NCBI GenBank assembly: GCA_011523315.1
Contig: WTHE01000457.1
Location: 1-26,658 of the forward strand
DNA: 26,658 nucleotides
Source: Candidatus Binatota bacterium
Lineage (GTDB): Bacteria > Desulfobacterota > Binatia > Bin18
Direction: 5' to 3'
In this document: positions 6,988 through 26,658 of the stretch, in pieces
Numbering within the stretch: position 1 is the first letter of the stretch
Layout: each line of letters opens with the position of its first letter
The notes under the pieces: model-generated
The model's input: only the letters and a program-made list of their open reading frames with translations
What the model was told of the DNA's origin: nothing
Database searches by the model: none
Translations under genes and position numbers: made by a program

Positions 6988-7022
6988 CAGCGCGCTCAGA
7001 ACAACTTTGCAAGGACACAGGC

Positions 7023-7892
7023 ATGGCAACACTCGGTGTAATCGGCGGCAGTGGGCTGTATCAGATGACCGGGCTCAGCAACGGCCAATGGGTGTCGGTT
7101 GAGACTCCGTTTGGCGCGCCCTCGGACGACTACTTTGTGGGCGAGCTTGACGACGTGCGGCTGGTCTTCCTGCCCCGTCACGGTCGGGGCCACCGGGTCC
7201 TGCCCTCGGAGCTGAACTTCAGAGCCAATATCTACGGGATGAAAAAGCTCGGCGTGGAATACCTGATTGGAGTCGGGGCGGTGGGCAGCCTCAAGCAGGA
7301 CATTGCGCCCGGCCATCTGGTCATTCCCGATCAGTTCATTGATCGGACCCGGAGTCGAATCGGGACCTTTTTTGGTCGCGGCCTGGTTGCCCATGTGTCT
7401 TTTGCCGATCCGGTGTGCGCGTCGCTGTCGGGGCTGTTGGCCGAGGTCGGTCGCGGACTCGGGGCGGCGATTCACGCCGGCGGGACCTATGTGTGCATGG
7501 AGGGCCCCCAGTTTTCGACCCGGGCCGAGTCTTTCCTGTACCGCAGTTGGGGGGCCGATGTGATCGGCATGACCAGTCTTCAGGAGGCCAAGCTGGCGCG
7601 CGAGGCCGAGCTGTGTTTTGCCAACCTGGCTCTGGCCACCGACTACGACTGCTGGAACACCGAGGCTGGCGACGTGGTGATCGAGGAGGTGTTGGCGATC
7701 CTCAACACGAACGTCACGACCGCCCAGCAGATCGTCCGCGAGGCTGCGGCCCAACTCCCGGACCGTCAGGCCTGTGGCTGCTCCCAGGCGCTGAAAGACG
7801 CCATTATCACCGACCGGAGTCTGATTCCGGCCGAGTTGAAGCGCGAGCTTGACCTCTTGATCGGCAGGTATCTCCGAGCGGCTCAGCCATGA
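7023..7892 (+). CDS. mtnP: S-methyl-5'-thioadenosine phosphorylase
   Basis: GVIGGSG, FLPRHG, MEGPQFSTRAES, GMT and ATDYDCW motifs. Start set at ATG 7023 after AAGGA (track starts at 6960). Confidence 0.93.
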   Translation: MATLGVIGGSGLYQMTGLSNGQWVSVETPFGAPSDDYFVGELDDVRLVFLPRHGRGHRVLPSELNFRANIYGMKKLGVEYLIGVGAVGSLKQDIAPGHLVIPDQFIDRTRSRIGTFFGRGLVAHVSFADPVCASLSGLLAEVGRGLGAAIHAGGTYVCMEGPQFSTRAESFLYRSWGADVIGMTSLQEAKLAREAELCFANLALATDYDCWNTEAGDVVIEEVLAILNTNVTTAQQIVREAAAQLPDRQACGCSQALKDAIITDRSLIPAELKRELDLLIGRYLRAAQP

Positions 7893-12185: not shown

Positions 12186-13997
12186 ATGAACAGCAGCCTG
12201 ATTCGCAACTTCAGCATTGTCGCCCACATCGATCACGGCAAATCGACGCTGGCCGACAAGCTGCTGTCATATTCGGGTTCGATCAGCGAGCGCGAAGAGG
12301 CGACCCAGTTTCTGGATACCATGGATCTGGAGCAGGAGCGGGGGATTACGATCAAGGCGCGGACGGTGCGCCTCCGCTACCAGGCCCAGGACGGCGAGAC
12401 CTACTGCCTGAATCTGATCGATACCCCCGGCCATGTTGACTTTTCCTACGAGGTGTCGCGCAGCCTGTCGGCGTGCGAGGGCGCCATTCTGGTTGTTGAT
12501 GCCGCCCAGGGGGTAGAAGCCCAGACCCTGGCCAATACCTATCTGGCCCTGGACCACTCGCTGGAAATTCTGCCGGTCATCAACAAAATAGACCTGCCCA
12601 GCGCCGAGCCCGAACGCGTGCGAGCCGAATTGGAGGACGTGATCGGTCTGGACGGCAGCGAGGCCGTTCTGGCCAGCGCCAAACACGGGCGCGGGATTCC
12701 CGAGGTGCTGGAAGGAATTGTGCGGACGGTTCCCCCGCCTCAGGGCGACGCCCGGCGGCCGCTCAGCGCCCTGGTGTTTGATAGCTGGTTCGACCCTTAC
12801 CAGGGCGCGGTGGTCCAGGTGCGTGTCTTTGACGGCGTGCTGCGGGCCGGAATGCGTATCCAGTTCGTCTCAACCGGTACGGTCTATGAGGTCGGCCAGA
12901 TCGGCGTGTTTGCCCCGCGACCGCTGGCCGTGTCCGCGCTGGGGCCCGGCGAGGTGGGCTTTGTGATGGCCAACATCAAGACGGTGACCGAGGCCCGGGT
13001 CGGGGATACGATCACCGACGCTGAGCGGCCGACCCGACAGCCGTTGGCCGGCTTCAAGGAGGTCAAGCCGATGGTGTTCAGCGGCCTCTATCCGGTCGAG
13101 TCCCACCAGTATGACGCGCTGCGCGACGCCATGGAAAAACTCCGGCTGAACGACTCCTCGCTGAGCTATGAGAAAGAGAGTTCCCTGGCACTCGGGTTTG
13201 GCTTCCGGTGCGGTTTTCTGGGCCTGCTGCACATGGAAATCGTCCAGGAGCGCGTGGAGCGCGAGTTTGGTCTGGATCTGATCACCACCACGCCGACGGT
13301 TGAATACCGGGTGCGGACGCTGGACGGCGAAGCGCTGCTCGTCGATAATCCGGCGCTGCTGCCCCCGGTCCAGGAGATTGCGGCGCTCGAAGAGCCGTTC
13401 ATTCTGGCCACCGTCCACGTCCCGACCGACTATCTCGGCAATGTCCTCCAGCTGTGTCAGGAACGGCGTGGCGTCCAGCGCGAGCTGAAATACCCGGCTC
13501 CCCAACGCGTCATGGTCTTGTACGAGCTGCCGCTCAACGAGGTCGTGGTTGACTTTCACGACCGCCTCAAGTCGGTTACCCGAGGGTATGCGTCGCTCGA
13601 CTACGAGCTGCTGGACCTGCGGCCGGCCGATCTGGTCAAGCTCGATGTGCGCATCAACGGCGACATCGTCGATGCCCTGTCGCTGATCGTCCACCGCGAT
13701 CAGGCCTACAGCCGGGGGCGTGAGCTGGTCCAGAAAATGCGCCAGCTGATTCCGCGCCAGATGTTTGAGGTGGCGGTCCAGGCGGCCATCGGCAACAAGG
13801 TCATCGCCCGCGAAAGCGTCAAAGCGCTGCGCAAAAACGTCACCGCCAAGTGCTACGGAGGGGATATTACCCGTAAGCGAAAACTGCTAGAAAAGCAAAA
13901 AGAAGGGAAGCGGCGTATGAAGCAAGTCGGACGGGTTGAGATTCCCCAGGACGCTTTTCTGGCCCTGCTGCGGGTTGGCGAAAAAGGGGAACGATGA
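12186..13997 (+). CDS. lepA: Translation elongation factor 4 (LepA)
   Basis: [35 protein letters not shown] and [25 protein letters not shown] motifs. Confidence 0.98.
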
Positions 13998-14069
13998 TGA
14001 CCACCTCGTCGAGCAGAACTCCTCGTTCACCTTTTGCCAACGGTCTGTGCCGGGGGCGCTAGGCGGGCT

Positions 14070-14765
14070 ATGGCCAAGCACAAACCGTCCGCACGGGTCG
14101 CCCTTGAGCCGGACCCTCCGACTGCCGGAGACAAGCCGGTGGCCGCCTCGCGGGCTCGGCTCAGGCAAAAGTCCGTTGTTCGGGAATACACCGAAGCCCT
14201 GCTGGTGGCCCTGCTGCTGGCCCTGTTCATCCGCAGCTTCATCGTCCAGGCCTTCAAAATCCCCTCGGGTTCGATGCTGACAACCCTCCAGGTCGGCGAT
14301 CACATCCTGGTCAACAAGTTTCTGTACGGGCTGCGTCTACCGTACCCTCTCGATCTGCCCCTCGTTCAGTGGGGGCAACCCCGGCGCGGTGACGTGATTG
14401 TCTTTGTCTACCCCAAAGACAGCAGCAAAGACTTCATCAAACGGGTGGTGGCGGTTGGCGGAGATACGGTCGAGATCCGCCGTAAACAACTGTTCATCAA
14501 CGGCCGGCCAGCCGAGGACCCGTACGCCACCTTCGCCGAAGCCGATCAGGAACGGCCGGGGCCACGCGATAACATTGGGCCGATTCGCGTCCCGGCCAAC
14601 CGGCTGTTTGTAATGGGTGATAACCGCGACCACAGCCACGACAGCCGGTTTTGGGGCTTTGTCGATGTGCACGATGTCAAGGGCAAAGCCTTTCTGATCT
14701 ACTGGTCCTGGGACGGGGCCGACCGCTGGGTGCGCTGGGAGCGCCTGGGGTCGCTGATTTACTAG
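14070..14765 (+). CDS. lepB: Signal peptidase I
   Basis: TM segment followed by IPSGSM (Ser), DFIKR (Lys) and GDNRDHSHDSRFWG. Start at ATG 14070 preferred over the track's 14034. Confidence 0.95.
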   Translation: MAKHKPSARVALEPDPPTAGDKPVAASRARLRQKSVVREYTEALLVALLLALFIRSFIVQAFKIPSGSMLTTLQVGDHILVNKFLYGLRLPYPLDLPLVQWGQPRRGDVIVFVYPKDSSKDFIKRVVAVGGDTVEIRRKQLFINGRPAEDPYATFAEADQERPGPRDNIGPIRVPANRLFVMGDNRDHSHDSRFWGFVDVHDVKGKAFLIYWSWDGADRWVRWERLGSLIY

Positions 14766-14776
14766 GGTGGTGCGTG

Positions 14777-16474
14777 ATGAGTCGGCTCGATGAGTTGCTG
14801 CTGGCGACCGGCAAGCTGTCCTCCGACGATCTGCGTCGGGTCCAGCTGGTCCAGCAGGAACGTGGCGAGCCCATGGAGCGTCTGCTGCTCGAACTCGGCT
14901 TCATGTCTGAGGACGATCTGCTGCCCGTGCTGGCCGACTACTACCGGGCGCCGCTGATCGGAGTGCGCGACTTTCCGCAGGATCCTCCCGCCCTCGACTC
15001 CATTAACCCGGCCTATTTTCGCCAGGCACGCATCTGCCCGCTGCGTGTCGAGGACGGCCAGCTCGTCGCCGCCATGGCCGACCCGGGGGATGTCGACGCG
15101 GTCGAAGCCCTGGAGAAGGCGACCGGTCTGCGTGTGGTGCGCCGGCTGGCGCGCGAACGTGAGCTGCTCGACGCGCTGAGCGCCTACGACACCGAGGGCG
15201 ACGGGCCGCCCGATAGGCTGGAGGCTGAGAACGGAGAGGGCGGCTATCTCGAAGAGGATCAGGACGTTGTCGCCCATCTGCGCGACCTGGCCAGCGAGGC
15301 CCCGGTCATCCGCCTGGTCAACGTCATGATCTCTCGGGCGATGGAGCAGCGGGCCTCGGATATCCACATTGAGCCGTTTGAGAAGGAACTGCGTGTCCGC
15401 TACCGCATTGACGGCATCTTGCACGATATTGAGTCTCCGCCGCGCTGGATGCAGGCCGCCCTCATCTCGCGCGTCAAGCTGATGGCCAAGCTGGATATCG
15501 CCGAACGCCGCCTGCCCCAGGACGGGCGGATCAAACTGCGCATGCTAGGTCGTGAGGTGGACCTGCGGGTCTCGACCCTGCCGACGCTGTACGGGGAGAG
15601 CGTTGTCCTGCGTATTCTCGACCGCTCCAGTATCACGCTCAGCCTCGAATCCTTAGGCTTCCCGACCGATACCCTGGAATTGTTCGAGACCCTTATTGCC
15701 AAGCCCTACGGCATGATCCTGGTGACGGGACCGACCGGCAGCGGAAAGACGACTACGCTGTACGGGGCTTTGGACAAAATCAACTCTCCCGACAAAAAGA
15801 TCATTACCATTGAGGACCCGGTCGAGTACCAACTGAGCGGTGTCAACCAGGTCCACGTCAAACCCCAAATCGGCCTCAGCTTTGCCTCGGGGCTGCGTTC
15901 TATCGTGCGCCAGGACCCGGACGTCATTATGATCGGTGAAATTCGTGATTACGAAACCGCCGAGATTGCGATTCAGTCCGCGCTGACCGGTCACCTGGTG
16001 TTCTCGACCCTGCACACCAACGATGCTGCCGGGGCGGTCACTCGACTCCTGGAGATGGGGGTTGAGGACTATCTGTTGGCCTCCTCGCTGCTGGGCGTGA
16101 TGGCCCAGCGCCTGGTCCGCTCATTATGCCGCCAGTGCCGCCGCCCCAGCCATAGCGGGCTTGAGCTTGAGGAGCAGGGGCTTGGGGCAAACGGTGTCGC
16201 CAACGGTACGGCGCCCGCTCCTTCCCTGTCCTACGACGCGGTCGGCTGCGAGGCCTGTGCCAACACCGGCTATCACGGTCGGCGGGGCATCTTCGAGCTG
16301 ATGACCGTCGATGAAGACATCCGCCCGCTGATCCTCAAACGCGCCTCGGCCGACGTGATCAAAAACCGGGCCATTGCCGCCCAGGAGATGCGCGTGCTGC
16401 GCGACGACGGCTGGCGGACGGTGGGCCAGGGCCTGACTACGGTGGCCGAAGTCCTGCGGGTGACCCAAGAGTAG
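14777..16474 (+). CDS. gspE: Type II secretion / type IV pilus assembly ATPase (GspE/PilB family)
   Basis: ASDIHIEP, RLPQDGR, GPTGSGKTT (Walker A), TIEDPVEY, RQDPDVIMIGEIRD, HTNDA and CRQC...CEAC motifs. MshEN-like N-terminus. GspE versus PilB cannot be settled by eye. Confidence 0.85.
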   Translation: MSRLDELLLATGKLSSDDLRRVQLVQQERGEPMERLLLELGFMSEDDLLPVLADYYRAPLIGVRDFPQDPPALDSINPAYFRQARICPLRVEDGQLVAAMADPGDVDAVEALEKATGLRVVRRLARERELLDALSAYDTEGDGPPDRLEAENGEGGYLEEDQDVVAHLRDLASEAPVIRLVNVMISRAMEQRASDIHIEPFEKELRVRYRIDGILHDIESPPRWMQAALISRVKLMAKLDIAERRLPQDGRIKLRMLGREVDLRVSTLPTLYGESVVLRILDRSSITLSLESLGFPTDTLELFETLIAKPYGMILVTGPTGSGKTTTLYGALDKINSPDKKIITIEDPVEYQLSGVNQVHVKPQIGLSFASGLRSIVRQDPDVIMIGEIRDYETAEIAIQSALTGHLVFSTLHTNDAAGAVTRLLEMGVEDYLLASSLLGVMAQRLVRSLCRQCRRPSHSGLELEEQGLGANGVANGTAPAPSLSYDAVGCEACANTGYHGRRGIFELMTVDEDIRPLILKRASADVIKNRAIAAQEMRVLRDDGWRTVGQGLTTVAEVLRVTQE

Positions 16475-16553: not shown

Positions 16554-16994
16554 CTAGGGTGTGCGAGTAACGGACGGTCTGTCCGGGGTCCAGTGTTCGA
16601 CCGCAGCCCGGGCCACCGGGCTGAACACCTCGGCTACACTCTCGACAAGCTGTGACAACCCGACCCAGCGCCGTCGGCGGGCGGTTTCATACGTCGCGCC
16701 CTCGCCGGTGACGCTGGCGGCAAAGAAAAAAAATGGCGTCGCCGCTCCTCCGGCTTCGCCTGCCACCCTGAGCGTGGCCAACAGGCGGCCGACCTCAACC
16801 GTATAGCCACTCTCCTCCGCACACTCCCGGGCGGCTGCTTGCTCCAGGCTTTCTCCCGGCTCGACCGTGCCGACCGGAAAAATCCAGCTACGGGGGTGTT
16901 TGCGGCTGGTAATCAGCAACACCTCGGGCTCGGCCGTGGCCGTGGGGCGGGTGGCCACGACGCCGGCCTTGGCTGGTGGTACATCGAGAGGCAT
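16554..16994 (-). CDS. Nudix hydrolase (resembles the Ap6A/DIPP subfamily)
   Basis: Nudix box GTVEPGESLEQAAARECAEESGY (Gx5Ex7REUxEExGU), preceded by EVLLITSRKHPRSWIFP. Confidence 0.88.
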   Translation of the reverse strand: MPLDVPPAKAGVVATRPTATAEPEVLLITSRKHPRSWIFPVGTVEPGESLEQAAARECAEESGYTVEVGRLLATLRVAGEAGGAATPFFFFAASVTGEGATYETARRRRWVGLSQLVESVAEVFSPVARAAVEHWTPDRPSVTRTP

Positions 16995-16997
16995 GGC

Positions 16998-17483
16998 CTA
17001 GTCTTTGGGCAGGTGCTCATGGCCCGGTTGGTCGTGGTGGGCCTGGTGTGATGCCGGGCTGGTCGGACGAACATCCCGGCCGGGTTCATGGCTCAGGTGC
17101 AGGCGACCCAGAAATTTGACGTTGGCACACGCGTCAACCTCGCCAACCGCACACTCCTCGACATTGGGAATAAAGAAGCGGAACGGGCCGCCTTTTTTGG
17201 GCGGCAGCGGTGCATCCCCCAGCCGATAGGCCACAATGGCGTCCTGCACGGCGGTGATCGGCAGGCTGGCCGAAAATTTTCCGTCGCTGGATTCGAGGGT
17301 AATATACCGAGCGCTGTCCGCAGGGCTGACCCGCTCGAGCAGAGACCGCAGGCGAACCCCGCCGCCGTCACGGCCGGGAACAAACTGCCCGACATCGGCG
17401 ATCTGGTCGGGCAGCCGAGTCAGGTCGTTGAAGCTGAAAGTGTGGGGGGAGGAAACCTCACCCTCTATGCGGAGCTGTGTCAT
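16998..17483 (-). CDS. Sulfite-oxidase-family molybdopterin-binding-like domain protein with His-rich tail
   Basis: LRIEGEVSSP, GVRLRSLLE, ESSDGKFSASLP, GDAPLPPKKGGPFR and NVKFL match the Oxidored_molyb layout. SD AGGAG overlaps the upstream stop. Confidence 0.7.
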   Translation of the reverse strand: MTQLRIEGEVSSPHTFSFNDLTRLPDQIADVGQFVPGRDGGGVRLRSLLERVSPADSARYITLESSDGKFSASLPITAVQDAIVAYRLGDAPLPPKKGGPFRFFIPNVEECAVGEVDACANVKFLGRLHLSHEPGRDVRPTSPASHQAHHDQPGHEHLPKD

Positions 17484-17494
17484 GTTTTCGTCTC

Positions 17495-19072
17495 CTACAG
17501 CGGATAGCGCTCCCGCAGCCGGGCTGCGGCTTCGACCATGACCGCCAGCTTGTGCTCGGCCTGCTGGGCCGAAACGATGGGGTTGTCGGCAAAGGTGGCA
17601 AAGCCGCAGTCCGGGTTGAGCAGCACCCGTTCCGGTCCGAACAGGGCCACGGCGCGCTCAGCCTTGGCCAGCACCTCCTCAAGGCTTTCCGTGGTCTGAT
17701 GCTTCTGGTTGACCACGCCGACGCCGATGCGCGCCTCGGCCGGCAGCGCGGCCAGGATTTCCATATCACCGGCCCGCGGGGTACACATTTCGAGGAAAAA
17801 CGTCCCCACCGGCAGCTTTTGCAGGAGCGGGATGAGCGGCACATAGTCGCCGGCCAGAGCAACGCTCTCGTCCGGGGTCCAGTTGCCGCGACAGATGTGT
17901 ATGCCCAGGCGTTCGCGTGGCAGACCGGCGACGACCTGTCGAATGAGTGATTCGGCGAAGGCGAGTTCGGCTGCGGGTTCGCGTTTTTCTCCCAGGGCAC
18001 CGCACATGAAGGTGCGGTTGGTGAGCGTGCCGCTGAAGACGACCTCGGTCAGAACCGGCTCGTCGAGCTGGACCAGGGACACGCCGGCGGCCAGCAGATG
18101 ATGCACCTCCTCGCGCAGCACCCGGACGATGTCGGTGGCGAGGTCTTCACGGGTGTCGTAGGCCCGGTCTGAGATACACTCCATCCACATCGTCCGGGTC
18201 AACAGGTAGGGGCCGGGCAGGGCGACTTTCAGCGGCGCCGGGGTCAGACCCCGCAAGAACTCGGCCTCGTGAACGGTGAGCGAACGGCTGCGCCCCAGGG
18301 GGCCGAACACTGCGGGATGGCGGACTCTGCCGGCCGGCACGTCCAGGGCGCGCAGCTCGCGCTCAAATTCGTGCGGATCGTCAACATAGGGCAGCAGGTC
18401 GGTGATGGGGATCAGCTGACAGTTGTCGAGCAGGCCACCCACAAAGCTGGCGTAGTTGTCGCGGTGCTGCTCGCCGTCGGTCACGACCTGGACCCCGGCC
18501 CGCTGCTGGGCGGCAACCGCCAGCCGCACCGCGTCTTCGGCCGTGCGGGAAAATTCGTCGTCCGGCATCCGCCCTTCGAGATGGTCGTTCAGCGCCCGCA
18601 GCAACCACGGCGGACGTGGCCAGCTCCCGATGTTCATGACCGACAGCGGGGCAATGGCCGGAGCGGGCTGGGGGGCCGGCAGCCGGTCGGGAATGACCAC
18701 CTCTTTGATCGGCTGGGTGATCGGCGCCGGTTCCCTGTCCGTGCGCGGCGTTCGCGTTTTTTTGTGCCGATTCTTCTGGACAGGTGACGGTGTAGGCGCC
18801 CGGTCGGCCGGCTTGTGATGCGGCCCTTTGGAGACCAGAAAACTGTTCTGCCCGCCGCGCCGGATATGGGACACCAGCTCATTCTTGGTCAGACGACACC
18901 AGGCCGGCAGGTCTTCGACGACCGAGGATTCGGTTGACAGGATCTCGAGCAGCTGGCCGGGGGTGAGCGGATCGATATGTTTGCGGATCAGCAGCAGCAG
19001 GCCGTTTCCGCAGTCGAGATCGCCACCGTCAAAACTGTCGTGCGGCTGGTACGGGTGCTCATCCATTGCCAT
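17495..19072 (-). CDS. Fusion of an N-terminal TusA/SirA-like sulfur-carrier domain and a cobalamin-independent methionine synthase II (Meth_synt_2/MetE C-terminal) catalytic domain
   Basis: aa 8-83: FDGGDLDCGNG...GQLLEILS...EDLPAWC...NELV (TusA pattern). aa 144-525: GSWPRP, TDGEQHR, LPGPY, QLDEP, HICRGN, LE and NPDCGF, giving zinc ligands H392, C394, E428 and C489. True start may be ATG 19066, which has better SD spacing. Confidence 0.88.
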   Translation of the reverse strand: MAMDEHPYQPHDSFDGGDLDCGNGLLLLIRKHIDPLTPGQLLEILSTESSVVEDLPAWCRLTKNELVSHIRRGGQNSFLVSKGPHHKPADRAPTPSPVQKNRHKKTRTPRTDREPAPITQPIKEVVIPDRLPAPQPAPAIAPLSVMNIGSWPRPPWLLRALNDHLEGRMPDDEFSRTAEDAVRLAVAAQQRAGVQVVTDGEQHRDNYASFVGGLLDNCQLIPITDLLPYVDDPHEFERELRALDVPAGRVRHPAVFGPLGRSRSLTVHEAEFLRGLTPAPLKVALPGPYLLTRTMWMECISDRAYDTREDLATDIVRVLREEVHHLLAAGVSLVQLDEPVLTEVVFSGTLTNRTFMCGALGEKREPAAELAFAESLIRQVVAGLPRERLGIHICRGNWTPDESVALAGDYVPLIPLLQKLPVGTFFLEMCTPRAGDMEILAALPAEARIGVGVVNQKHQTTESLEEVLAKAERAVALFGPERVLLNPDCGFATFADNPIVSAQQAEHKLAVMVEAAARLRERYPL

Positions 19073-19126
19073 GACTCCTGGGCCCTCGTCTCTGAGCTAC
19101 GGCGGCAAACGGGAGAACGATTCGGA

Positions 19127-19489
19127 TCAGTACGACACACACGGCGTGCCGTCGGCCAGATACTCGATCAGCTTGGCCCCGCCGACGATCTTCGCCCCCG
19201 GCACCAGACTGTTCTCGTCCAGGCCCCGTTTCTTGAAGCACGGCGAGCACACATAGATCGTCCCGCCGGCCTCGGCGTAGTTCGTCATCAGCTCTTTGAG
19301 GGGCAGAAAGCCGTCTTCACGGATATCGTCGGCATAGCCGTTGACGGCCAGACGCACGCCTTCGGTACTCAAGAATACCAGGGTTTTCTGGTCGGAGCCG
19401 ACTGCGGCATTGGCAATCACAAAGGCGACGGTGGCTTTATCCGGGTTGTCTTTGGCGTGGGTGAGAGAAACACAGAATTTACCTGGCAT
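19127..19489 (-). CDS. DsrE/DsrF-family sulfur relay protein (120 aa)
   Basis: DKATVAFVIANAA, VFLSTEGVRL, GGTIYVCSPCFKKRGL and IVGGAKLIEY match the DsrE-like fold pattern. ATG 19489 follows AGGAGG (the track's 19570 extension is not supported). Confidence 0.88.
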   Translation of the reverse strand: MPGKFCVSLTHAKDNPDKATVAFVIANAAVGSDQKTLVFLSTEGVRLAVNGYADDIREDGFLPLKELMTNYAEAGGTIYVCSPCFKKRGLDENSLVPGAKIVGGAKLIEYLADGTPCVSY

Positions 19490-19529
19490 GGGATCCTCCT
19501 TCGCATGTGGGTGGCAGGTCGATGGGGGC

Positions 19530-19558
19530 ATCATAGCCAGCCGTACCGGGTCCCGCAA
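19530..19558 (-). promoter_or_regulatory. Sigma70-type promoter for the dsrE operon
   Basis: Minus strand TTGCGG (19558-19553), 17-bp spacer, TATGAT (19535-19530). Confidence 0.55.
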
Positions 19559-19581
19559 CGCGGGCCGCAACAGTCAGCGTC

Positions 19582-19611
19582 TTGCTGCCCCGCGTCTTCT
19601 CCCGCTATACT
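19582..19611 (+). promoter_or_regulatory. Sigma70-type promoter for metY-metX-metW
   Basis: TTGCTG (19582-19587), 18-bp spacer, TATACT (19606-19611). Confidence 0.55.
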
Positions 19612-19679
19612 CGGACGAACGCCAGCTACCTTGGCAAGAGGGGCGCGGCCGAGCCTGGCATCACGAGGGAGAATAACGC

Positions 19680-20978
19680 ATGAGTGCCAACCAGACGAAG
19701 GATCGCCAATACGGATTCAGCACCCGTCAGCTGCACGCCGGCCAACAGCCCGATCCAACCACCGGCAGTCGGGCGGTGCCGATCTACCAGACGACCTCCT
19801 ATCAGTTCAAAGACACCGGGCACGCGGCCGACCTGTTTGCTCTCAAAGAGCCCGGCAATATCTATACCCGCATCATGAATCCGACCAACGATGTCCTGGA
19901 GCAGCGCCTGGCCTCGCTCGAAGGCGGGGTCGGCGCCCTGGTTTCCAGCAGCGGCCACGCGGCCCAGATGATGGCTATCATGGCCCTGTGCGGGCAGGGC
20001 GATCATATCGTCAGCAGTAGCCGCCTGTACGGCGGGACGTATAACCAGTTCACCCACACCTTTCCGCGCATGGGGATTACGACGACCTTTGTCGATCCGA
20101 CCAAACCCGAGGAGTTTGCCGCTGCGGTCCAGCCCAACACCAAGATTCTGTACGGTGAGACCCTGGGCAACCCGGACATTACGGTTTTCCCGTTCGACGA
20201 GGTGTCCGAGGTGTCGCGGACCAAGCGCGTGCCGTTCATGCTGGACAACACCTTTGCCACGCCCTACCTGTGCCGGCCGTTTGAGTGGGGGGCGCACATT
20301 GTGACCCACAGCACGACCAAGTTTCTGAGTGGGCACGGCACGGCGATTGGAGGGGCGATTGTTGACGGCGGCAATTTTGACTGGCGCAGCGGACGCTTCC
20401 CCAATTTCACCGAACCGGACCCGTCCTACCACGGCTTGGTGTACGCCGACCTGGGCGCCCCGGCCATGATTCTCAAGTCTCGCGTGCAGATCCTGCGCGA
20501 CGTGGGTGGCTGCCAGGCGCCGTTTGACAGTTTCACCACCTTGCTCGGGGTTGAGACGCTGAGTCTGCGTATGCAGCGGCATGTCGAAAACGCCCAGCAG
20601 GTGGCCGAGTTTCTCGACACCCACCCCGGGGTCGAGTCGGTCGCCTTTCCCGGTCTGGCCCAGCATCCGGACCACGCCAGAGCCCAGAAATATCTCCCCC
20701 GCGGCGCCGGATCGATCCTGGGCTTTCGGATCAGGGGCGGGCGTGTGGCGGGCGAGACCTTCATCAACAGCCTCACACTCCACAGTCATGTGGCCAATGT
20801 CGGGGATGCCAAGAGCCTGGCCATTCACCCGGCCAGTACGACCCACAGCCAGCTCAACGAGGACGAGCTGCTGAGCGCCGGGGTGTCGCCCGATTTCGTC
20901 CGGCTGAGTGTCGGTATAGAAGACATTGATGACATTGTGTGGGACCTGGACCAAGCCCTCAGGACGGCCAGCAGCTAG
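19680..20978 (+). CDS. metY: O-acetylhomoserine aminocarboxypropyltransferase (sulfhydrylase)
   Basis: AVPIYQTTSY, YTRIMNPT, HSTTKFLSGHG (PLP-Lys), ETLSLRMQRH, NVGDAKSL and RLSVGIE motifs. SD GAGGGAG. Confidence 0.92.
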   Translation: MSANQTKDRQYGFSTRQLHAGQQPDPTTGSRAVPIYQTTSYQFKDTGHAADLFALKEPGNIYTRIMNPTNDVLEQRLASLEGGVGALVSSSGHAAQMMAIMALCGQGDHIVSSSRLYGGTYNQFTHTFPRMGITTTFVDPTKPEEFAAAVQPNTKILYGETLGNPDITVFPFDEVSEVSRTKRVPFMLDNTFATPYLCRPFEWGAHIVTHSTTKFLSGHGTAIGGAIVDGGNFDWRSGRFPNFTEPDPSYHGLVYADLGAPAMILKSRVQILRDVGGCQAPFDSFTTLLGVETLSLRMQRHVENAQQVAEFLDTHPGVESVAFPGLAQHPDHARAQKYLPRGAGSILGFRIRGGRVAGETFINSLTLHSHVANVGDAKSLAIHPASTTHSQLNEDELLSAGVSPDFVRLSVGIEDIDDIVWDLDQALRTASS

Positions 20979-21009
20979 CGCTCCGGCGGAGAGCTGACCG
21001 AGACAACCC

Positions 21010-22230
21010 ATGAGCAGTACTGGCGATGTCGGCGCTGTCCAGCCGCACCAATTCACCTTCGCCCAGCAGCAGCCGTTTCCGCTCGACAGCGGGGCTACGC
21101 TGAGCCCGGTCAGCCTCACCTATGAGACCTATGGCCAGCTGAACGCGGACCGCTCGAACGCCATTCTGATCACCCATGCGTTGAGCGGGAGTGCCCACGC
21201 CGCCGGCCACTACGAGCCCGAGGACGGGCGTCTGGGCTGGTGGGACGACTGCATCGGACCGGGCAAAGCCTTCGATACCGACCGGTTCTTTGTCATCTGC
21301 AGCAACGTCCTGGGCGGCTGTTACGGCTCGACCGGTCCGACCCATATCGATCCGGCCACCCAGACGCCGTACGGCATGCGTTTCCCGGTGGTGACCATAG
21401 GCGATATGGTTCGCGCCCAGGTTCGGCTGGTGGATTACCTGGAGATTGACCAGCTGCTATGCGTGGCCGGCGGCTCCATGGGCGGTATGCAGGCCCTGGA
21501 GTGGGCGGCCGCGTATCCGCAGCGCGTCCGGGCGGCCATCCCGATCGCCACCACGGCCCACCACAGCCCGATGCTGATCGCGCTGAGCGAGGTCGGCCGC
21601 CAGGCCATTTACGCCGACCCGGCCTGGAATAACGGCGATTATCATGACGCCGAGGTCAAGCCCGACGCCGGGCTGGCGGTGGCCCGGATGGTCGGCCACA
21701 TTACCTATTTGAGCGAAGAGTCCATGCAGCAGAAGTTCGGCCGCCGTTTGCAGGACCGCGTCCGCTACGGCTATGAATTTCGGACCGAGTTTCAGGTTGA
21801 GAGCTATCTGAAATACAAGGGCAATAATTTTACCCGTCGGTTTGACGCCAACAGCTATCTGTATATCACCAAGGCGATGGACTATTTCGACCTGAGCGCC
21901 GCGACCGGTTCCCTGGCCGCCGCGTTTGCCAACTCGGCCGCGCTCAAATACCTGGTCGTCAGCTTTACCAGCGACTGGCTGTATCCGAGCTATCACAGCA
22001 AGGAGCTGGTCAGCGCGCTGACCGCCGCCGGGGCCGATGTCACCTATCTCGACGTGCAGAGTTCGTGGGGACACGACGCGTTTCTGCTCGAAGTCGAGAC
22101 CATGACCAGCTTACTCGGCAGTTTTCTTGACCGCCTGGTCCACGATGAGGACATCGCTCTGCCCGCCGGCCCCTCGTCCCATCCGCCGACCCGCAATCAC
22201 AAAGGGCGGAAGACCGGGGTGGCCGCATGA
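21010..22230 (+). CDS. metX: Homoserine O-acyl(acetyl)transferase
   Basis: HALSG, GGSMGGMQA (nucleophile Ser), ARMVGHITY, RFDANSY, SDWLYP and GHDAFL motifs. Acetyl versus succinyl specificity not determinable by eye. Confidence 0.93.
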   Translation: MSSTGDVGAVQPHQFTFAQQQPFPLDSGATLSPVSLTYETYGQLNADRSNAILITHALSGSAHAAGHYEPEDGRLGWWDDCIGPGKAFDTDRFFVICSNVLGGCYGSTGPTHIDPATQTPYGMRFPVVTIGDMVRAQVRLVDYLEIDQLLCVAGGSMGGMQALEWAAAYPQRVRAAIPIATTAHHSPMLIALSEVGRQAIYADPAWNNGDYHDAEVKPDAGLAVARMVGHITYLSEESMQQKFGRRLQDRVRYGYEFRTEFQVESYLKYKGNNFTRRFDANSYLYITKAMDYFDLSAATGSLAAAFANSAALKYLVVSFTSDWLYPSYHSKELVSALTAAGADVTYLDVQSSWGHDAFLLEVETMTSLLGSFLDRLVHDEDIALPAGPSSHPPTRNHKGRKTGVAA

Positions 22231-22270
22231 GGGTGCAGCCGCTTCGCGCGTTCTGCCCCCAGGCCGCTCC

Positions 22271-22873
22271 GTGAACCCTGTCGGTCTGCGTTCCGATCTG
22301 CTGGTGATTGCCGAGCTGGTCCCCTCCCAGGTCCGTATTCTTGACCTGGGGTGTGGGGACGGTGCCCTGCTGGAGTATCTCGTCCGTGAGAAACAGGTGA
22401 CTGGACGGGGCATTGAGCTGGGCGAGGCTGGGGTTCTGACCTGCGTCCGGCGCGGTTTGAGCGTGCGCCAGGGCAACCTCGAAGAGGGACTGGCCGATTA
22501 TCCGGCGGCCAGTTTCGACTATGTGATCCTGAGCCAGACGCTGCCGTTTCTGGACGATCCGGCCATGATCGTCGAGGAGATGCTGCGGGTCGGCAAACAG
22601 GCGATTGTCAGTTTTCCCAACTGGGGCTATTGGCGGTGCCGGTTTGAGCTGCTGCTGACCGGGCGTATTCCGCACGCCTCCGACCTGCCCGAACGCTGGC
22701 ACGAGACGCCCCGCTGGCAGGCCTTCACGGTGGCCGATTTTGGCGACTTCTGCCGCCGGCTGGGGGTGCGTATTACGCAGGAGCGCTATCTGGCCCACAC
22801 GCGCCGCCTGAAAAATATCCGCTATAAGAATCTGCGGGCGACGACCGCAGTGTTCAGTCTGGAAAAATGCTGA
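22271..22873 (+). CDS. metW: Methionine biosynthesis protein MetW
   Basis: RSDLLVIAELV, ILDLGCGDG, FDYVILSQTL and VSFPNWGYWR motifs, directly after metX. Start set at GTG 22271 (the track's 22127 overlaps metX). Confidence 0.88.
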   Translation: MNPVGLRSDLLVIAELVPSQVRILDLGCGDGALLEYLVREKQVTGRGIELGEAGVLTCVRRGLSVRQGNLEEGLADYPAASFDYVILSQTLPFLDDPAMIVEEMLRVGKQAIVSFPNWGYWRCRFELLLTGRIPHASDLPERWHETPRWQAFTVADFGDFCRRLGVRITQERYLAHTRRLKNIRYKNLRATTAVFSLEKC

Positions 22874-22876
22874 GCC

Positions 22877-22912
22877 AAAAAAACGGGGCCTCCCCCATAG
22901 GAGACCCCGTTT
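22877..22912 (-). terminator. Intrinsic terminator downstream of the DyP gene (possibly bidirectional)
   Basis: Minus strand AAACGGGGTCTCC-TATGGG-GGAGGCCCCGTTT followed by TTTT (run of 7 T in total). Confidence 0.8.
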
Positions 22913-22933: not shown

Positions 22934-23857
22934 CTACGACAGCGCCTTGTCAAGCGTCTCGACCGACGGGGCAAAATAGAACGAGCCCGATGCCGGGTTG
23001 CTGTACGATGTCAGCCGGTCACGTACCTGGCCATCTATCCCATACATGGCCCGCATGCGCTCGCGCAGCGGCGCCTGAGCCTTGCAGAAGGCCATGAAAT
23101 ACAGGCCGACCGTCCCATCGTGGAAGGCATACGGCGTCGACCGGCGGGAGATCTCGTCGCGCTTGGGCGTGCTCTCATCGCCCGTTTTGCCCTCACGTAG
23201 CTCGTGGTGGGCCAGGTGCGAGTGGGGCGGCAGGGGGGACAGCTTGGCGGATTCATCGCCCTTGGTCCGACCAAAGACTTTTTCCTGTTCATCGACCGGC
23301 AGCAGATTAAACGCCTCCAGGTCATGAATCCAGCGCTGGGCGATGATAAAGCTGCCACCCGCGCCGGGTTCGCCGTCCGGCACGACGGCCACCTCGACAT
23401 CGCGCTCGGGGTCAGGGTTGCCGGTCCCGTCTTTGAAGCCGGTCATGTCAAAGGAGTTGCCATAGATGAAGGTCATGGTCTCGCGGGCGACGCGCATGTC
23501 CTCCCTGAGCGCCTCGCGGGCGTCATACTGCGTCTTCCAGACCTTGTCTTTGTCGTCGTGGTTCAGCCAGAACAGCAGCTCTTCCTGGGTCCCCTTGGCC
23601 TCTTTGCCGCTGCCATCAACAGACCGAAAGGTTTCGTAGGGCTGAAAATCGTTGGGCACATCATCCGTCAGGTCTGACAATAGGCTGGGACCAACACCGA
23701 TGGTCAGGTTGATGCCCTGATCATCGCAGTCTTTGCGCAGTTGCGAGACAGCAGCCTTGATCCGACCCATATCTGCGCCGTCCAGACGACTCAGATGAAC
23801 GTACCATTGGTGCTTCCCCATATCCCTGTTCAGTACGGCAGGTTGAGGTGTTGCCAT
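22934..23857 (-). CDS. Dye-decolorizing (DyP-type) heme peroxidase
   Basis: GFKDGTGNP (GxxDG), QRWIHDL, VFGRTK, HSH (proximal His), ISRRSTPY (distal Arg) and FYFAPS motifs. SD AGGAGGA. Confidence 0.9.
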   Translation of the reverse strand: MATPQPAVLNRDMGKHQWYVHLSRLDGADMGRIKAAVSQLRKDCDDQGINLTIGVGPSLLSDLTDDVPNDFQPYETFRSVDGSGKEAKGTQEELLFWLNHDDKDKVWKTQYDAREALREDMRVARETMTFIYGNSFDMTGFKDGTGNPDPERDVEVAVVPDGEPGAGGSFIIAQRWIHDLEAFNLLPVDEQEKVFGRTKGDESAKLSPLPPHSHLAHHELREGKTGDESTPKRDEISRRSTPYAFHDGTVGLYFMAFCKAQAPLRERMRAMYGIDGQVRDRLTSYSNPASGSFYFAPSVETLDKALS

Positions 23858-23889
23858 GTAATCCTCCTCTCTGAAATTTGCTACTCCCC

Positions 23890-23918
23890 CTCTTATCCAG
23901 CACAGCTGAGACTGTCAA
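23890..23918 (-). promoter_or_regulatory. Candidate sigma70 promoter for the DyP gene
   Basis: Minus strand TTGACA (23918-23913), 17-bp spacer, TAAGAG (23895-23890). Perfect -35, imperfect -10. Confidence 0.5.
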
Positions 23919-23984
23919 GATTAGGCGCCTCTCCCAGCCTGGCCGCCGGTGTCCTTTTGGCCGCGGCTGGGATAGATTGGGCGC

Positions 23985-24281
23985 GTGGATCAGCGTGACA
24001 CAGCGACCTCTGGCCTCCTCGCCGGCTTCGGGGCAATTGGGCGACGGAGTCTGATCGGCCTGCTGCGCGGCTATCAGCGCCTGGTATCGCCGCTCCTGCT
24101 GGCCGTGTTCGGTCCGCAGGCCGGCTGTCGTTTTTCGCCCAGCTGTTCCCAGTACGCTATCGAGTGTTTTCAGCTCCATCCCTTCTTCTACGCCTTGGGC
24201 CTGGCGCTCAAACGGCTCGGCCGCTGTCACCCCTGGTGTGCCGGCGGCTGTGATCCTGTCCCCCGACCCCGTTCTCGCTAG
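23985..24281 (+). CDS. yidD: Membrane protein insertion efficiency factor YidD
   Basis: YQRLVSP, CRFSPSCSQYA and RLGRCHPW...GGCDPVP motifs. Start codon uncertain. Confidence 0.88.
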   Translation: MDQRDTATSGLLAGFGAIGRRSLIGLLRGYQRLVSPLLLAVFGPQAGCRFSPSCSQYAIECFQLHPFFYALGLALKRLGRCHPWCAGGCDPVPRPRSR

Positions 24282-24296
24282 CCGCAGGAAGGCTCC

Positions 24297-25106
24297 ATGC
24301 GCATTATTTCGTGCAATCTCAACGGTATCCGCTCGGCCGCCCGCAAAGGATTTTTTGTCTGGCTGGCAGACCAGCAGCCCGACCTGGTGTGTGTCCAGGA
24401 GCTGAAAGCCCAGGAGGCCGATCTGTCCCCCGCTCTGCTCCAGCCCCCGGGTCTGAGCGGATATTTCCATCCGGCCGAAAAGCGCGGCTATTCCGGAGTC
24501 GGGGTGTATGCCCGGCGTCCGCCAGACGCCCTGCGCTGCGGCTGGGGCCACGCCGATATCGATGCCGAGGGACGCTACCTGCGGGCCGATTTTGGCCGGC
24601 TGAGCCTGGTTTCGCTGTACCTGCCGTCGGGGTCGAGTTCAGAGCAGCGCCAGGCGGCCAAGTATGCGTTCATGGACCGCCTCCTTCCCGAGCTGCGCGC
24701 GCTGCGGGCCAGTCGCAGACACGTGGTGGTGTGCGGAGATTGGAACATCGCCCATACCCAGAAGGATTTGAAAAACTGGCGCTCGAATCAGAAGAATTCG
24801 GGTTTTCTGCCCCAGGAACGGGAGTGGCTAACGGGTGTCTTTGACGAGGTCGGCTTTGTGGATGTGTTCCGACGCCTGAATCACGAACCCGAGCAGTATA
24901 CCTGGTGGTCAAACCGGGGGCAGGCCTGGGCCAAGAACGTTGGCTGGCGGCTGGACTACCAGATTGCCACCCCTGGCCTGGCGGCCAAGGCTCGCCAGAC
25001 GTGGATTTATAAAGACCGGCGCTTTTCCGATCACGCGCCGCTGATTATTGATTACGACTACGAGCTTGCTCCGGCTCGCAAAAAACGGGCTGGTCGTGCG
25101 GCCTAG
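24297..25106 (+). CDS. xth: Exodeoxyribonuclease III / AP endonuclease
   Basis: NLNGIRS, QELKA, GYSGV, CGDWNIAH, YTWWSNRG, GWRLDY and SDHAP motifs. SD AGGAAGG. Confidence 0.95.
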   Translation: MRIISCNLNGIRSAARKGFFVWLADQQPDLVCVQELKAQEADLSPALLQPPGLSGYFHPAEKRGYSGVGVYARRPPDALRCGWGHADIDAEGRYLRADFGRLSLVSLYLPSGSSSEQRQAAKYAFMDRLLPELRALRASRRHVVVCGDWNIAHTQKDLKNWRSNQKNSGFLPQEREWLTGVFDEVGFVDVFRRLNHEPEQYTWWSNRGQAWAKNVGWRLDYQIATPGLAAKARQTWIYKDRRFSDHAPLIIDYDYELAPARKKRAGRAA

Positions 25107-26188
25107 TTCGAGTCCGTGCGGTCTGCGTTGAGCAAGTCCTGCAAACCCGAGGCGAACAGCCCGGCGACGCTGTGGGCGATCAACTCGGGCAGCTCGTGCG
25201 GCCGACAGCCGGAAGCCGCAGGGTGGCCACCGCCGCCGAACATTTGGGCCAGCTTGGACAGGTCAGCCCGGCAGTCCGGAGAGCGGCGTAAACTGATCCC
25301 CCCGTTTTTGCGATCATAGAAGACAAAGACGGTATTGGTCGCCTGTTTGCCCCAGCTGTCCCCGATTTCGCTCGGATAGCCGTCACACACCGCGCAGACC
25401 AAGCTGCTGCCGTCCGGCCCCACCCGCCGGACTCTGCTGCGTTGGGCCAGGGCGAAACTGTCTTTGATCTCGCGGGTCGATTGCTCGTAGGCCGCCTGCA
25501 TGGCCGGGCTGTAGGTGACGTCGGCGTCAATATCGAGCAGGGCGTGGTAGGCGTCGAGATTGTCGTCGTCGGTGCCGGCCAGGGTGCTGACGGTCAAGGC
25601 CAGCTCACGCGACCCGGGGATGGCGTGTATCCACCGGTCGTTGTCATCGGCCTGGGCCACAACCGGCGCAAAGGCGCGAAACGCCTCGTTGGTTTTGCCG
25701 CTGGCGTCCAGCTGCCGCTCCAGATATTCGTACACCAGGCGGGCGCCCGACACGGCCTCGTTCAGCTCATAGTCGGTGAAAGGCGCATGAATCGCCCCAC
25801 TGGCATGCCGGGCGATAGCCGTCCGGTGGTGGTCGAACCAGTACAGCTTGACGCCCTTGGTCGCGAGTTGTCGCAGGTGGGCGTTGGTCGCTTCCTCGGT
25901 CCACGAAATATCGGTGATCCACACCTCGCTGCCCGCCGGGGTGTGCTCCGGGCTGATTGAGCACAGCACCTGATCAATGCGGCTATTCGAGGCAAAGCGG
26001 GGAATCAGCCGAGCCCCGTCCCGGTAGCGGGCAACCGCCACCGCTGCGGCTACGCCGTCCAGACAGCCTGGACCGTGACTGACGATATAGACGCACGGAG
26101 CGCCGGATTCGGGACTGTTTACGCGTTGCATAGGGGGTGTATTATCGGGTGCCTCGACCCGGACTGCGGCCCGGGCCGGGTATGTCAT
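25103..26188 (-). CDS. DHH/DHHA1-family phosphoesterase (NrnB/oligoribonuclease-like)
   Basis: SHGPGCLDG, ITDIS, FDHH, DDNDRW, SLR and GGGGHPAASG motifs. Start placed at ATG 26188, just after the upstream small ORF; 26131 is also possible. Convergent 4-nt overlap with xth. Confidence 0.85.
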   Translation of the reverse strand: MTYPARAAVRVEAPDNTPPMQRVNSPESGAPCVYIVSHGPGCLDGVAAAVAVARYRDGARLIPRFASNSRIDQVLCSISPEHTPAGSEVWITDISWTEEATNAHLRQLATKGVKLYWFDHHRTAIARHASGAIHAPFTDYELNEAVSGARLVYEYLERQLDASGKTNEAFRAFAPVVAQADDNDRWIHAIPGSRELALTVSTLAGTDDDNLDAYHALLDIDADVTYSPAMQAAYEQSTREIKDSFALAQRSRVRRVGPDGSSLVCAVCDGYPSEIGDSWGKQATNTVFVFYDRKNGGISLRRSPDCRADLSKLAQMFGGGGHPAASGCRPHELPELIAHSVAGLFASGLQDLLNADRTDSN

Positions 26189-26201
26189 GGGCTGGCGCAG
26201 C

Positions 26202-26375
26202 TCAGCGGGTCCGAACGGTGTAATCGCACGATTTGCTCTCGCACGCCCAGTAGAAGCCTTTCTTCGAACCAAAACCCGCGTACTGGACAACCCGAGCGCT
26301 TTCTTTACACACTGGACAGGGGCGTTTGTGCTGCGAATCTTTGTCTTTTCTGGCGCCTCTTCCTCTTTCGGCCAT
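26202..26375 (-). CDS. 57-aa basic four-cysteine (zinc-ribbon-like) protein, not in the ORF track
   Basis: My translation: MAERGRGARKDKDSQHKRPCPVCKESARVVQYAGFGSKKGFYWACESKSCDYTVRTR*. SD AGGAGGA lies 5 nt before the ATG, with a promoter upstream. Confidence 0.8.
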   Translation of the reverse strand: MAERGRGARKDKDSQHKRPCPVCKESARVVQYAGFGSKKGFYWACESKSCDYTVRTR

Positions 26376-26410
26376 GGGTTTCCTCCTGATGTCCAGGGAC
26401 GGACTGTCTC

Positions 26411-26439
26411 AGCATACGCATCTCGACCACGTCTGCCAA
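26411..26439 (-). promoter_or_regulatory. Sigma70-type promoter for the small four-Cys ORF and DHH gene
   Basis: Minus strand TTGGCA (26439-26434), 17-bp spacer, TATGCT (26416-26411). Confidence 0.55.
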
Positions 26440-26477
26440 GCCCGCCCGCATCGCTTGCCGACGGGTGACGTGGTCCT

Positions 26478-26502
26478 TGTCACACCGCGACCGGGTGTGA
26501 CA
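26478..26502. promoter_or_regulatory. 9-bp inverted repeat TGTCACACC-N7-GGTGTGACA, candidate operator
   Basis: Arms at 26478-26486 and 26494-26502, 10 nt upstream of ATG 26513. The function is inferred. Confidence 0.4.
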
Positions 26503-26512
26503 CAACAGGCCC

Positions 26513-26658
26513 ATGCTGGTTGATGGCCATGATCTCGTCCAGGCGCTGTTTCGGTGGCTGCATATCCTGGCCGGCGTGACGTGGATCGGTCTGCTGTATT
26601 TCTTGACTTTCATCCATGTCCGACTCAGCCCCGCGCTCCGCAGCCAGCTGCTCTCTCA
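26513..26658 (+). CDS. Membrane protein resembling the N-terminus of the urate hydroxylase PuuD family (3'-truncated by window edge)
   Basis: My translation: MLVDGHDLVQALFRWLHILAGVTWIGLLYFLTFIHVRLSPALRSQLLS... The RWLHxxAGxxWIG pattern is recognisable, but only 48 codons are visible. Confidence 0.5.
   Translation, partial: MLVDGHDLVQALFRWLHILAGVTWIGLLYFLTFIHVRLSPALRSQLLS

Follow-up and report, generated by a model that had tools for sequence, protein, structure and literature searches.

A MetE-fold zinc enzyme tethered to a TusA domain and paired with a DsrE protein: a recurrent, uncharacterised combination found beside metY-metX-metW in a sponge-associated Binatia genome

Methionine synthases of the MetE type are built from two (beta-alpha)8 barrels, some 750 amino acids in all, of which the Meth_synt_1 barrel helps to bind the methyl-folate polyglutamate. 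In Wolinella a protein thiocarboxylate, HcyS, reportedly serves as sulfur donor for homocysteine synthesis. Among selenium-linked proteins the pairing of a TusA with a DsrE(CGXC) domain is the signature of YedF (Lin et al. 2015, PMC5322559), while CxxC/UxxC DsrE-like proteins, which include a UxxC selenoprotein family, are regarded as redox proteins (PMC1088965). Here we describe a locus in which elements of these systems meet: a stretch of Candidatus Binatota DNA (contig WTHE01000457.1, 26,658 nucleotides; hereafter the window) that encodes a TusA domain fused to a single-barrel MetE-type enzyme (TusA::core-MetE), with a dsrE gene directly upstream. The finding is thus a MetE-fold zinc enzyme together with a TusA/DsrE relay; the kinds of component are known, their combination is uncharacterised, and the closest known system is the MesD/MesX core methionine synthase. 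A full-text literature search returned no paper on the fusion, and the analysis of core synthases by Price et al. 2021 (PMC7857596) makes no mention of TusA.

The source genome is a sponge-associated, Binatia-like metagenome-assembled genome (MAG) of 782 contigs and 88% completeness. Gene identities were taken from the listing of open reading frames (ORFs) and from Pfam and NCBIfam profile searches of the window. The two genes at the centre of this work are:

17495..19072, minus strand: TusA::core-MetE fusion, 525 amino acids; TusA 32.9 bits, Meth_synt_2 91 bits
19127..19489, minus strand: DsrE-family protein, 120 amino acids; PF02635 57.3 bits against a gathering threshold of 22.7

The fusion consists of a TusA-like domain (residues ~10-85), a tether (~89-124) and a single-barrel zinc enzyme of the MetE/MesD type (~140-525). 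Evidence that the barrel has kept the catalytic site of its family came from an alignment in which 20 diverse fusions were set against the C-terminal half of E. coli MetE. The zinc ligands H392, C394, E428 and C489, counterparts of E. coli H641, C643, E665 and C726, are invariant in 20 of 20 – E665 and C726 being matched directly in E. coli MetE, and H392-I-C394 aligning to the HxC of MesD (PDB 3RPD). Equally invariant are S150, E201 and D337, the equivalents of S433, E484 and D599, which hold homocysteine in E. coli MetE (Price et al. 2021, PMC7857596). Both hallmarks of the MetE superfamily, zinc ligands and homocysteine-binding residues, are therefore present. The N-terminal, folate-side barrel is absent (Meth_synt_1 16.6 bits against a cut-off of 27): the two-barrel MetE model TIGR01371 gives the fusion 72 bits (range 35-84) against a cut-off of 930, and the core-synthase models stay below theirs as well (PRK04326, 161 against 406; PRK09121, 104 against 392; PRK00957, 76 against 258 bits). 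The name that fusion genes currently carry in annotation, '5-methyltetrahydropteroyltriglutamate--homocysteine methyltransferase', is contradicted by this domain content.

Structure prediction agrees with the layout. The AlphaFold2 (AF2) model, with a predicted local distance difference test (pLDDT) score of 72.9, is confident for the TusA domain and the barrel, and Foldseek matches the barrel to MetE C-terminal barrels and to MesD 3RPD (template-modelling score 0.73 by target). Relative to MesD there are two large insertions, at ~206-262 and ~345-375, and three extra cysteines – C218, C299 and C357 – that are invariant among the fused forms and, as judged from the alignment, would sit on loops at the active-site face of the barrel. 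Of the three, C357 alone is retained in short unfused relatives (43-46% identity); it lies in the motif R-T/S-F-M-C-G/A-A-L, in the loop just past the DEP strand. The TusA domain scores 32.9 bits with PF01206 (gathering threshold 28.6), and fusion residues 10-83 align to residues 8-80 of E. coli TusA, with C21 at the position of Cys19. Between domain and barrel runs a flexible and variable tether of ~35 residues, rich in K, R and P, followed by a conserved segment, APITQPI...IP..LP.P.PAP.

The DsrE partner, whose ATG at 19489 is preceded by a GGAGGA ribosome-binding site, belongs to PF02635 and carries a CxxC pair, C81-S-P-C84. C81 aligns with the cysteine of the DsrE-like structure 3MC3, the usual position in the family; across 71 homologues conservation is at least 97% for P83 and C84 and at least 90% for C81. 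No NCBIfam model, the YedF model TIGR03527 included, matched the protein at E 1e-5.

The nature of the unit to which the fusion belongs was addressed by comparing loci. The fusion architecture is shared by more than 6000 protein clusters, with 62-85% identity between phyla, and in a species-level genome collection at least 578 stretches encode a relative (578 confirmed among the first 600 candidates). Counts of neighbours refer throughout to the best 80 of these loci, which are 60-84% identical to the window's fusion and whose neighbours were identified by tblastn and by clustering of all ORFs. Carriers fall in at least eight phyla and include Binatia – the source of the closest relatives – Planctomycetota, Actinomycetota, Acidimicrobiia, Burkholderiales (among them cultured Duganella and Massilia), Acidobacteriota, Rokubacteria, Methylomirabilota, Dehalococcoidia and others. 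The gene immediately upstream of the fusion is dsrE in 71-72 of the 80 loci, and an additional small TusA gene, with a C-G-(D/E)-L motif, precedes DsrE in 47-54, although in none from Binatia; a first-pass annotation of the window had suggested such clusters of TusA, DsrE and Meth_synt_2 genes in other bacteria, correctly as it proves. Three Pfam-annotated loci from unrelated phyla have TusA-DsrE-fusion set amid unrelated genes, and an actinobacterial relative encodes the parts unfused: a TusA, a DsrE 67% identical to that of the window, a second TusA and a MetE-like enzyme of 382 amino acids. A tblastn search found no standalone cassette-type TusA elsewhere in the window's MAG.

Other neighbours do not keep company with the fusion. 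In the window it is followed by a gene for a molybdenum-cofactor (Moco)-like protein and a Nudix gene, and the first-pass annotation took all four minus-strand genes for one system paired with a metY-metX-metW operon. The Nudix gene adjoins the cassette in just 2 of the 80 loci; so does the Moco-like gene (L013 and L014), which lies 7-9 kb from the fusion in three further Binatia loci. A metY-metX-metW set stands near the cassette in eight loci, all of them Binatia relatives; the remaining 72 have none of the three genes within 10 kb, save for a weak MetY-family match (36% identity) in L083. Neither a corrinoid protein, MesX or a methyltransferase, nor a desulfurase, rhodanese or sulfur-source enzyme recurs near the cassette in the 80 loci. 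Because only these components recur, we conclude that the unit of selection is the carrier or carriers, DsrE and the MetE-like enzyme – two genes here, three elsewhere. The four-gene row paired with metY-metX-metW is a lineage-specific arrangement: the adjacency is confined to eight loci of one lineage, and is therefore probably a single inherited arrangement and not a general link. In Binatia, then, a widespread (small TusA)-DsrE(CxxC)-TusA::core-MetE cassette has been embedded in a manner peculiar to the lineage, with loss of the separate TusA and gain of the Moco-like and Nudix genes.

A different embedding is seen in Oxalobacteraceae, where an ATP-binding cassette (ABC) importer of the PhnD/PhnE/PhnC type is inserted between DsrE and the fusion (L051, 7483-9967, from Duganella alba; also L032, L037, L057, L058, L065, L067, L075, L084, L085 and L088). 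PhnE and PhnC exceed their NCBIfam cut-offs, whereas the binding protein passes a subfamily model only; these loci also hold a second DsrE-like gene. What the importer takes up may hint at the function of the cassette.

What might such a cassette do? Across the 80 loci the constant gene partners of the fusion are cysteine carriers only, never methyl-donor proteins, from which we infer that the co-substrate arrives on a cysteine. Since a methyl group on cysteine would be a poor donor, the cargo is more likely to be sulfane sulfur, selenium or a thiol/disulfide redox equivalent. The account that we tentatively favour is a relay of cysteines delivering sulfur, selenium or reducing power to a substrate of the homocysteine type bound at the zinc. 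Cargo would pass from DsrE to the TusA domain, from there to C357 and finally to the zinc-bound thiolate of a homocysteine-type amino acid, on which the enzyme would form or resolve an S-S or S-Se bond, with no methyl drawn from folate or B12. In Binatia the cassette may act on the homocysteine pool made by MetY, a link that would be local. A narrower version, in which a zinc-bound (seleno)homocysteine thiolate swaps sulfur or selenium with TusA/DsrE-delivered persulfides or perselenides via Cys357 – a new reaction for the MetE fold – is possible, if on the doubtful side.

Several observations weigh against the relay. To our knowledge the zinc sites of the MetE family have been associated with alkyl transfer and not with S-S or S-Se chemistry, and the chemistry put forward here is a prediction. 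The intact homocysteine pocket would fit a true methionine synthase equally well, and the methyl group might come from a free metabolite, for which the cassette would require no gene of its own. The TusA domain is without the canonical CPxP, having in its place a D-C-G-(N/S)-G motif that is invariant in 20 sequences (DCGNG in the window). The AF2 model has low confidence at the loops bearing the extra cysteines, so that their placement at the mouth of the active site rests on the MetE alignment. The predicted DsrE-fusion complex scored 0.02, which counts neither for nor against binding. Finally, the link to selenium (below) is modest, 93% against 76%, and is not corrected for phylogeny.

The main rival holds the enzyme to be a genuine methionine synthase independent of folate and B12, which would add a fifth 'core' family to MesA-D; TusA and DsrE would then maintain its cysteines and zinc site in reduced form or assist in providing an unusual methyl donor, and such an enzyme would be useful when B12 is scarce. 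Zinc ligands and homocysteine triad are intact, the closest solved relative is MesD 3RPD, and MesD also needs a non-homologous helper, MesX, together with an unknown methyl donor (PMC7857596). The head-to-head position of the cassette and metY-metX-metW in Binatia points the same way. Within the window the fusion is, as the first-pass annotation observed, the sole gene able in principle to methylate homocysteine, the annotated ORFs including no cysteine desulfurase, metH or metF; the further claim that this step was still needed falls with the genome as a whole. A full-length MetH is present in the MAG (1226 bits; cut-off 1011), and because MetH is present the fusion is neither the cell's required methionine synthase nor a missing methylation step. 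Nor do other carriers lack the standard enzymes, a check that the first-pass annotation had proposed: four of five have MetH above cut-off, and two, Duganella and Massilia, hold MetH, MetE and the cassette together. The fusion may act as an accessory enzyme – this much survives of the earlier suggestion of a folate- and B12-independent synthase, which was right about a MetE-type enzyme without folate domain – and, since the window's MAG and a complete Binatia genome both have MetH and no full-length, two-barrel MetE, a B12-independent back-up would make sense. Against this stand the scores far below the core-synthase cut-offs (161 against 406 and 104 against 392 bits), the methyl-donor gene that is never linked to the cassette, the constancy of sulfur or selenium carriers as partners when methyl on cysteine would be a poor donor, and the restriction of the met-gene link to one lineage. 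On balance we regard a methionine synthase as rather unlikely.

The window's MAG also contains five other Meth_synt_2 paralogues of single-barrel form, which share 25-29% identity with the fusion (contigs C328, C273, C656, C749 and C725), and the complete Binatia genome shows the same pattern of single-barrel paralogues in the absence of a two-barrel MetE. One core-MetE paralogue of the latter genome was considered as a selenocysteine (Sec) protein and rejected: the candidate TGA lies upstream of its start.

Selenium nevertheless provides the next alternative, namely that the carriers traffic Cys-S-Se, with the enzyme either using a seleno-amino acid as substrate or passing selenium on towards SelD, which would place the cassette in selenium and not in sulfur metabolism. 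SelD is found above cut-off in 50 of 54 carriers (93%) and in 276 of 364 background genomes (76%), an odds ratio of 4 (p ~0.002) that carries no phylogenetic correction. The carriers comprise the window's genome, 48 genomes reached through the loci (46 with SelD) and five new ones from a Burkholderiales sample (three with SelD); the background combines the non-carriers of that sample with a Planctomycetota sample from which the carrier centre genome was removed, the rest being unscreened for the fusion. The genome of the window has a Sec-containing SelD with in-frame TGA (G000:C28:258-1205), YedF is built from the same TusA and DsrE(CGXC) domain types (PMC5322559), and a UxxC DsrE-like selenoprotein family exists (PMC1088965). 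The association loses force on closer inspection. It disappears within Burkholderiales, where five of seven carriers have SelD against 76% overall; SelD is common in carrier phyla at large (75% of sampled Planctomycetota); and carriers may be better assemblies. In Actinomycetota the cassette occurs in 2 of 301 genomes, too rarely for a comparison within the phylum. SelD does lie within 10 kb of the fusion in three of the 80 loci, but all three are unclassified Burkholderiales MAGs that may be related, and in the one inspected (L055) an IS200-type transposase gene separates fusion from SelD, the other neighbours are unrelated and the adjacency is loose. The window's DsrE does not match the YedF model TIGR03527, the candidate selenocysteine TGA mentioned above turned out to be an upstream stop, and screens of 201 genomes of one phylum, 301 of Actinomycetota and 251 of Burkholderiales yielded no TGA-containing homologue of the fusion. 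We consider a selenium-specific role unlikely.

In several Binatia and Planctomycetota carriers (G561-G564, G572, G574 and others) SelD lies in open frames of ~730-800 amino acids, joined there to a sizeable additional domain.

The remaining alternatives depend on the surroundings of the cassette in the window, which comprise the following features:

16554..16994, minus strand: Nudix hydrolase, 146 amino acids; PF00293 61 bits
16998..17483, minus strand: short sulfite-oxidase-fold (Oxidored_molyb-like) protein, 161 amino acids; PF00174 63.6 bits, partial
19490..19679, no strand: divergent spacer, 190 nucleotides; two back-to-back promoter-like elements
19680..20978, plus strand: metY, O-acetylhomoserine sulfhydrylase; TIGR01326 650 bits against a cut-off of 495
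21010..22230, plus strand: metX, homoserine O-acetyltransferase; NF001209 529 bits against a cut-off of 331
22289 (approximate start)..22873, plus strand: metW; TIGR02081 217 bits against a cut-off of 190

As first described, the direct-sulfhydrylation operon metY-metX-metW is complete, all three products exceeding NCBI curated cut-offs, and the identities of the four minus-strand genes hold, as do the gaps of 54, 11 and 3 nucleotides that separate them from dsrE to nudix and the 190-nucleotide spacer. That spacer had been called a shared control region. It is physically shared; a riboswitch or common operator was rejected, given that no Rfam family reached its gathering threshold (the other matches being at chance level, E 5-6) and that in eight aligned Binatia spacers the only conserved blocks are two promoter-like boxes and two ribosome-binding sites. 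In the window the boxes read TTGCGG-17-TATGAT facing dsrE and TATACT facing metY; a generic consensus promoter scan of the spacer gave no match.

Sequencing runs containing DNA of the window are mostly sponge and marine metagenomes. Evidence for expression came from metatranscriptomes: assembled contigs from four runs in three studies, sponge and marine and 92-99% alike, cover all seven genes and span the DsrE/fusion, fusion/Moco-like and Moco-like/Nudix junctions. The cassette of DsrE and fusion is thus expressed in situ, and the bridging contigs are consistent with, though no proof of, a single transcript from dsrE to nudix, a row within which no convincing terminator was found. Next to metW lies a gene for a dyp-type peroxidase (22934-23857, minus strand) whose depth exceeds that of its neighbours 10-50-fold in the four metatranscriptomes (33-265 against 5-20 in three of them); because of this difference the signal is RNA and not a flat carry-over of DNA, and the symbiont appears to express dyp at a high level. 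Between the convergent metW and dyp a strong hairpin (22881-22912; 14 bp, GC-rich, T-runs on both sides) closes the met operon and is probably a bidirectional terminator.

Further afield, a PNP_UDP_1 phosphorylase, possibly a methylthioadenosine phosphorylase, is encoded at 6960-7892 (plus strand), 14 kb from metW; the same gene adjoins metW in the relative L099 (18716-19540). L099 also holds a set resembling a cyclic-oligonucleotide-based anti-phage signalling system (CBASS), with SMODS cyclase, bacterial HORMA protein and AAA ATPase, between its Moco-like gene and metW (13289-15716), a set that is absent from the window. Three minus-strand ORFs of the window (23721-24551, 25103-26290 and 26305-26613) have no Pfam match at E 1e-5, and some may be shadow frames in GC-rich DNA.

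The two genes downstream of the fusion are lineage-specific additions. The Nudix protein has an intact Nudix box, GX5EX7REUXEEXGU (GTVEPGESLEQAAARECAEESGY), and falls far below the cut-off of every NCBIfam equivalog. The Moco-like protein matches the sulfite-oxidase family in part: profile positions 73-163 of 169 are covered, corresponding to the latter half of the molybdopterin domain alone, and residues 1-110, where the loop with the Mo-ligating cysteine is expected, contain no cysteine. Neither the complete domain nor the ligand of a sulfite-oxidase-fold Moco enzyme is present, and on its sequence we take the protein to be a degenerate member of the fold and not a working Moco enzyme. It has a C111-x7-C119 pair and a His-rich tail. 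Its family is small (198 clusters, mostly Binatia-like, 159-161 amino acids) and elsewhere stands alone among unrelated genes. In L099 (8999-10480) the gene adjoins an Exo_endo_phos gene, whose counterpart in the window lies 7 kb off at 24297-25106; this neighbourhood in a relative suggests that local rearrangement brought the Moco-like gene behind the fusion.

The sulfite-oxidase fold is also that of the methionine sulfoxide reductase MsrP. A thiol-based reductase may be envisaged, in which C357 would attack an oxidised derivative of methionine or homocysteine (a sulfoxide, mixed disulfide or homocystine) with zinc as Lewis acid, and in which the cysteines of TusA and the DsrE CxxC would regenerate C357. 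In its favour, a CxxC protein stands at the end of the conserved cysteine relay, DsrE-like proteins with CxxC or UxxC count as redox proteins (PMC1088965), and a gene of the MsrP fold has joined the operon in this lineage. Yet no reductase of the MetE-type fold is known, the neighbour in question is lineage-specific and without Mo ligand, and the argument is purely inferential; we judge it highly improbable. Least credible is the proposal, one of two made in the first-pass annotation, that the four genes mobilise sulfur and channel persulfide to MetY for homocysteine synthesis: the head-to-head arrangement with metY-metX-metW in eight Binatia-relative loci, the similar metatranscriptome depth of both operons and the HcyS thiocarboxylate route, said to be a precedent, speak for it, whereas the met genes are missing within 10 kb in the other 72 loci bar the weak match in L083, genes for a desulfurase, a rhodanese or a sulfur-source enzyme are not linked to the cassette, the Moco-like protein has no Mo ligand, the zinc- and homocysteine-binding barrel is left without a role, and MetY enzymes use free sulfide, so that no support was found beyond local adjacency.

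A MetE fold whose folate barrel has been exchanged for a tethered carrier would represent either a fifth folate-independent methionine synthase or new sulfur/selenium chemistry on homocysteine. If sulfur/selenium exchange is the correct reading, thousands of bacterial species would have chalcogen trafficking coupled directly to their pool of homocysteine and methionine. There is a practical consequence too: metabolic models that count the fusions as MetE will wrongly predict B12-independent synthesis of methionine. Carriers amenable to study exist in culture, among them Duganella, Massilia and a sequenced planctomycete.

Comparison with known systems places the cassette at the junction of several. 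The Wolinella HcyS/MetY route shares the idea of a protein-bound sulfur donor beside a MetY-type enzyme; it differs in that neither a ThiS-like carrier nor an adenylating enzyme is annotated in the window, the carriers are of the persulfide type and the MetY link is that of one lineage. YedF (TIGR03527) likewise pairs a TusA-like with a DsrE-like CxxC domain in genomes with SelD, but in the cassette the domains are on separate chains or TusA is fused to the enzyme, and YedF has no described MetE-like partner. The persulfide relays of TusA, DsrE(FH) and TusBCD in sulfur oxidation and tRNA thiolation use the same two carrier folds and cysteine positions; in the cassette a MetE-type enzyme takes the place of DsrC, MnmA or Hdr as acceptor, a linked desulfurase is missing, the motif of TusA reads CG(N/S)G in place of CPxP, and DsrE carries a CxxC pair. 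With MetE (E. coli b3829, and the structures from T. maritima, fungi and plants) the fusion has in common the catalytic C-terminal barrel, the equivalents of S433, E484, D599, E665 and C726 and the HxC, whereas it is without the N-terminal barrel and coexists with a real MetE in Duganella and Massilia. Nearest of all is MesD/MesX. MesX (DUF1852, PF08908) gave no match in the window's 88%-complete genome, where control genomes were silent too, and none near the cassette in the 80 loci; compared with MesD the fusion has two loop insertions, C218/C299/C357 and a tethered TusA, and lies below the core-synthase cut-offs. MesD 3RPD is nonetheless its best sequence match (E 2e-25) and a top PDB fold match. 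Both are single MetE-type barrels that dispense with the folate domain and keep the same zinc and homocysteine residues, and common to both is dependence on an unrelated helper: MesX in the one, TusA and DsrE in the other.

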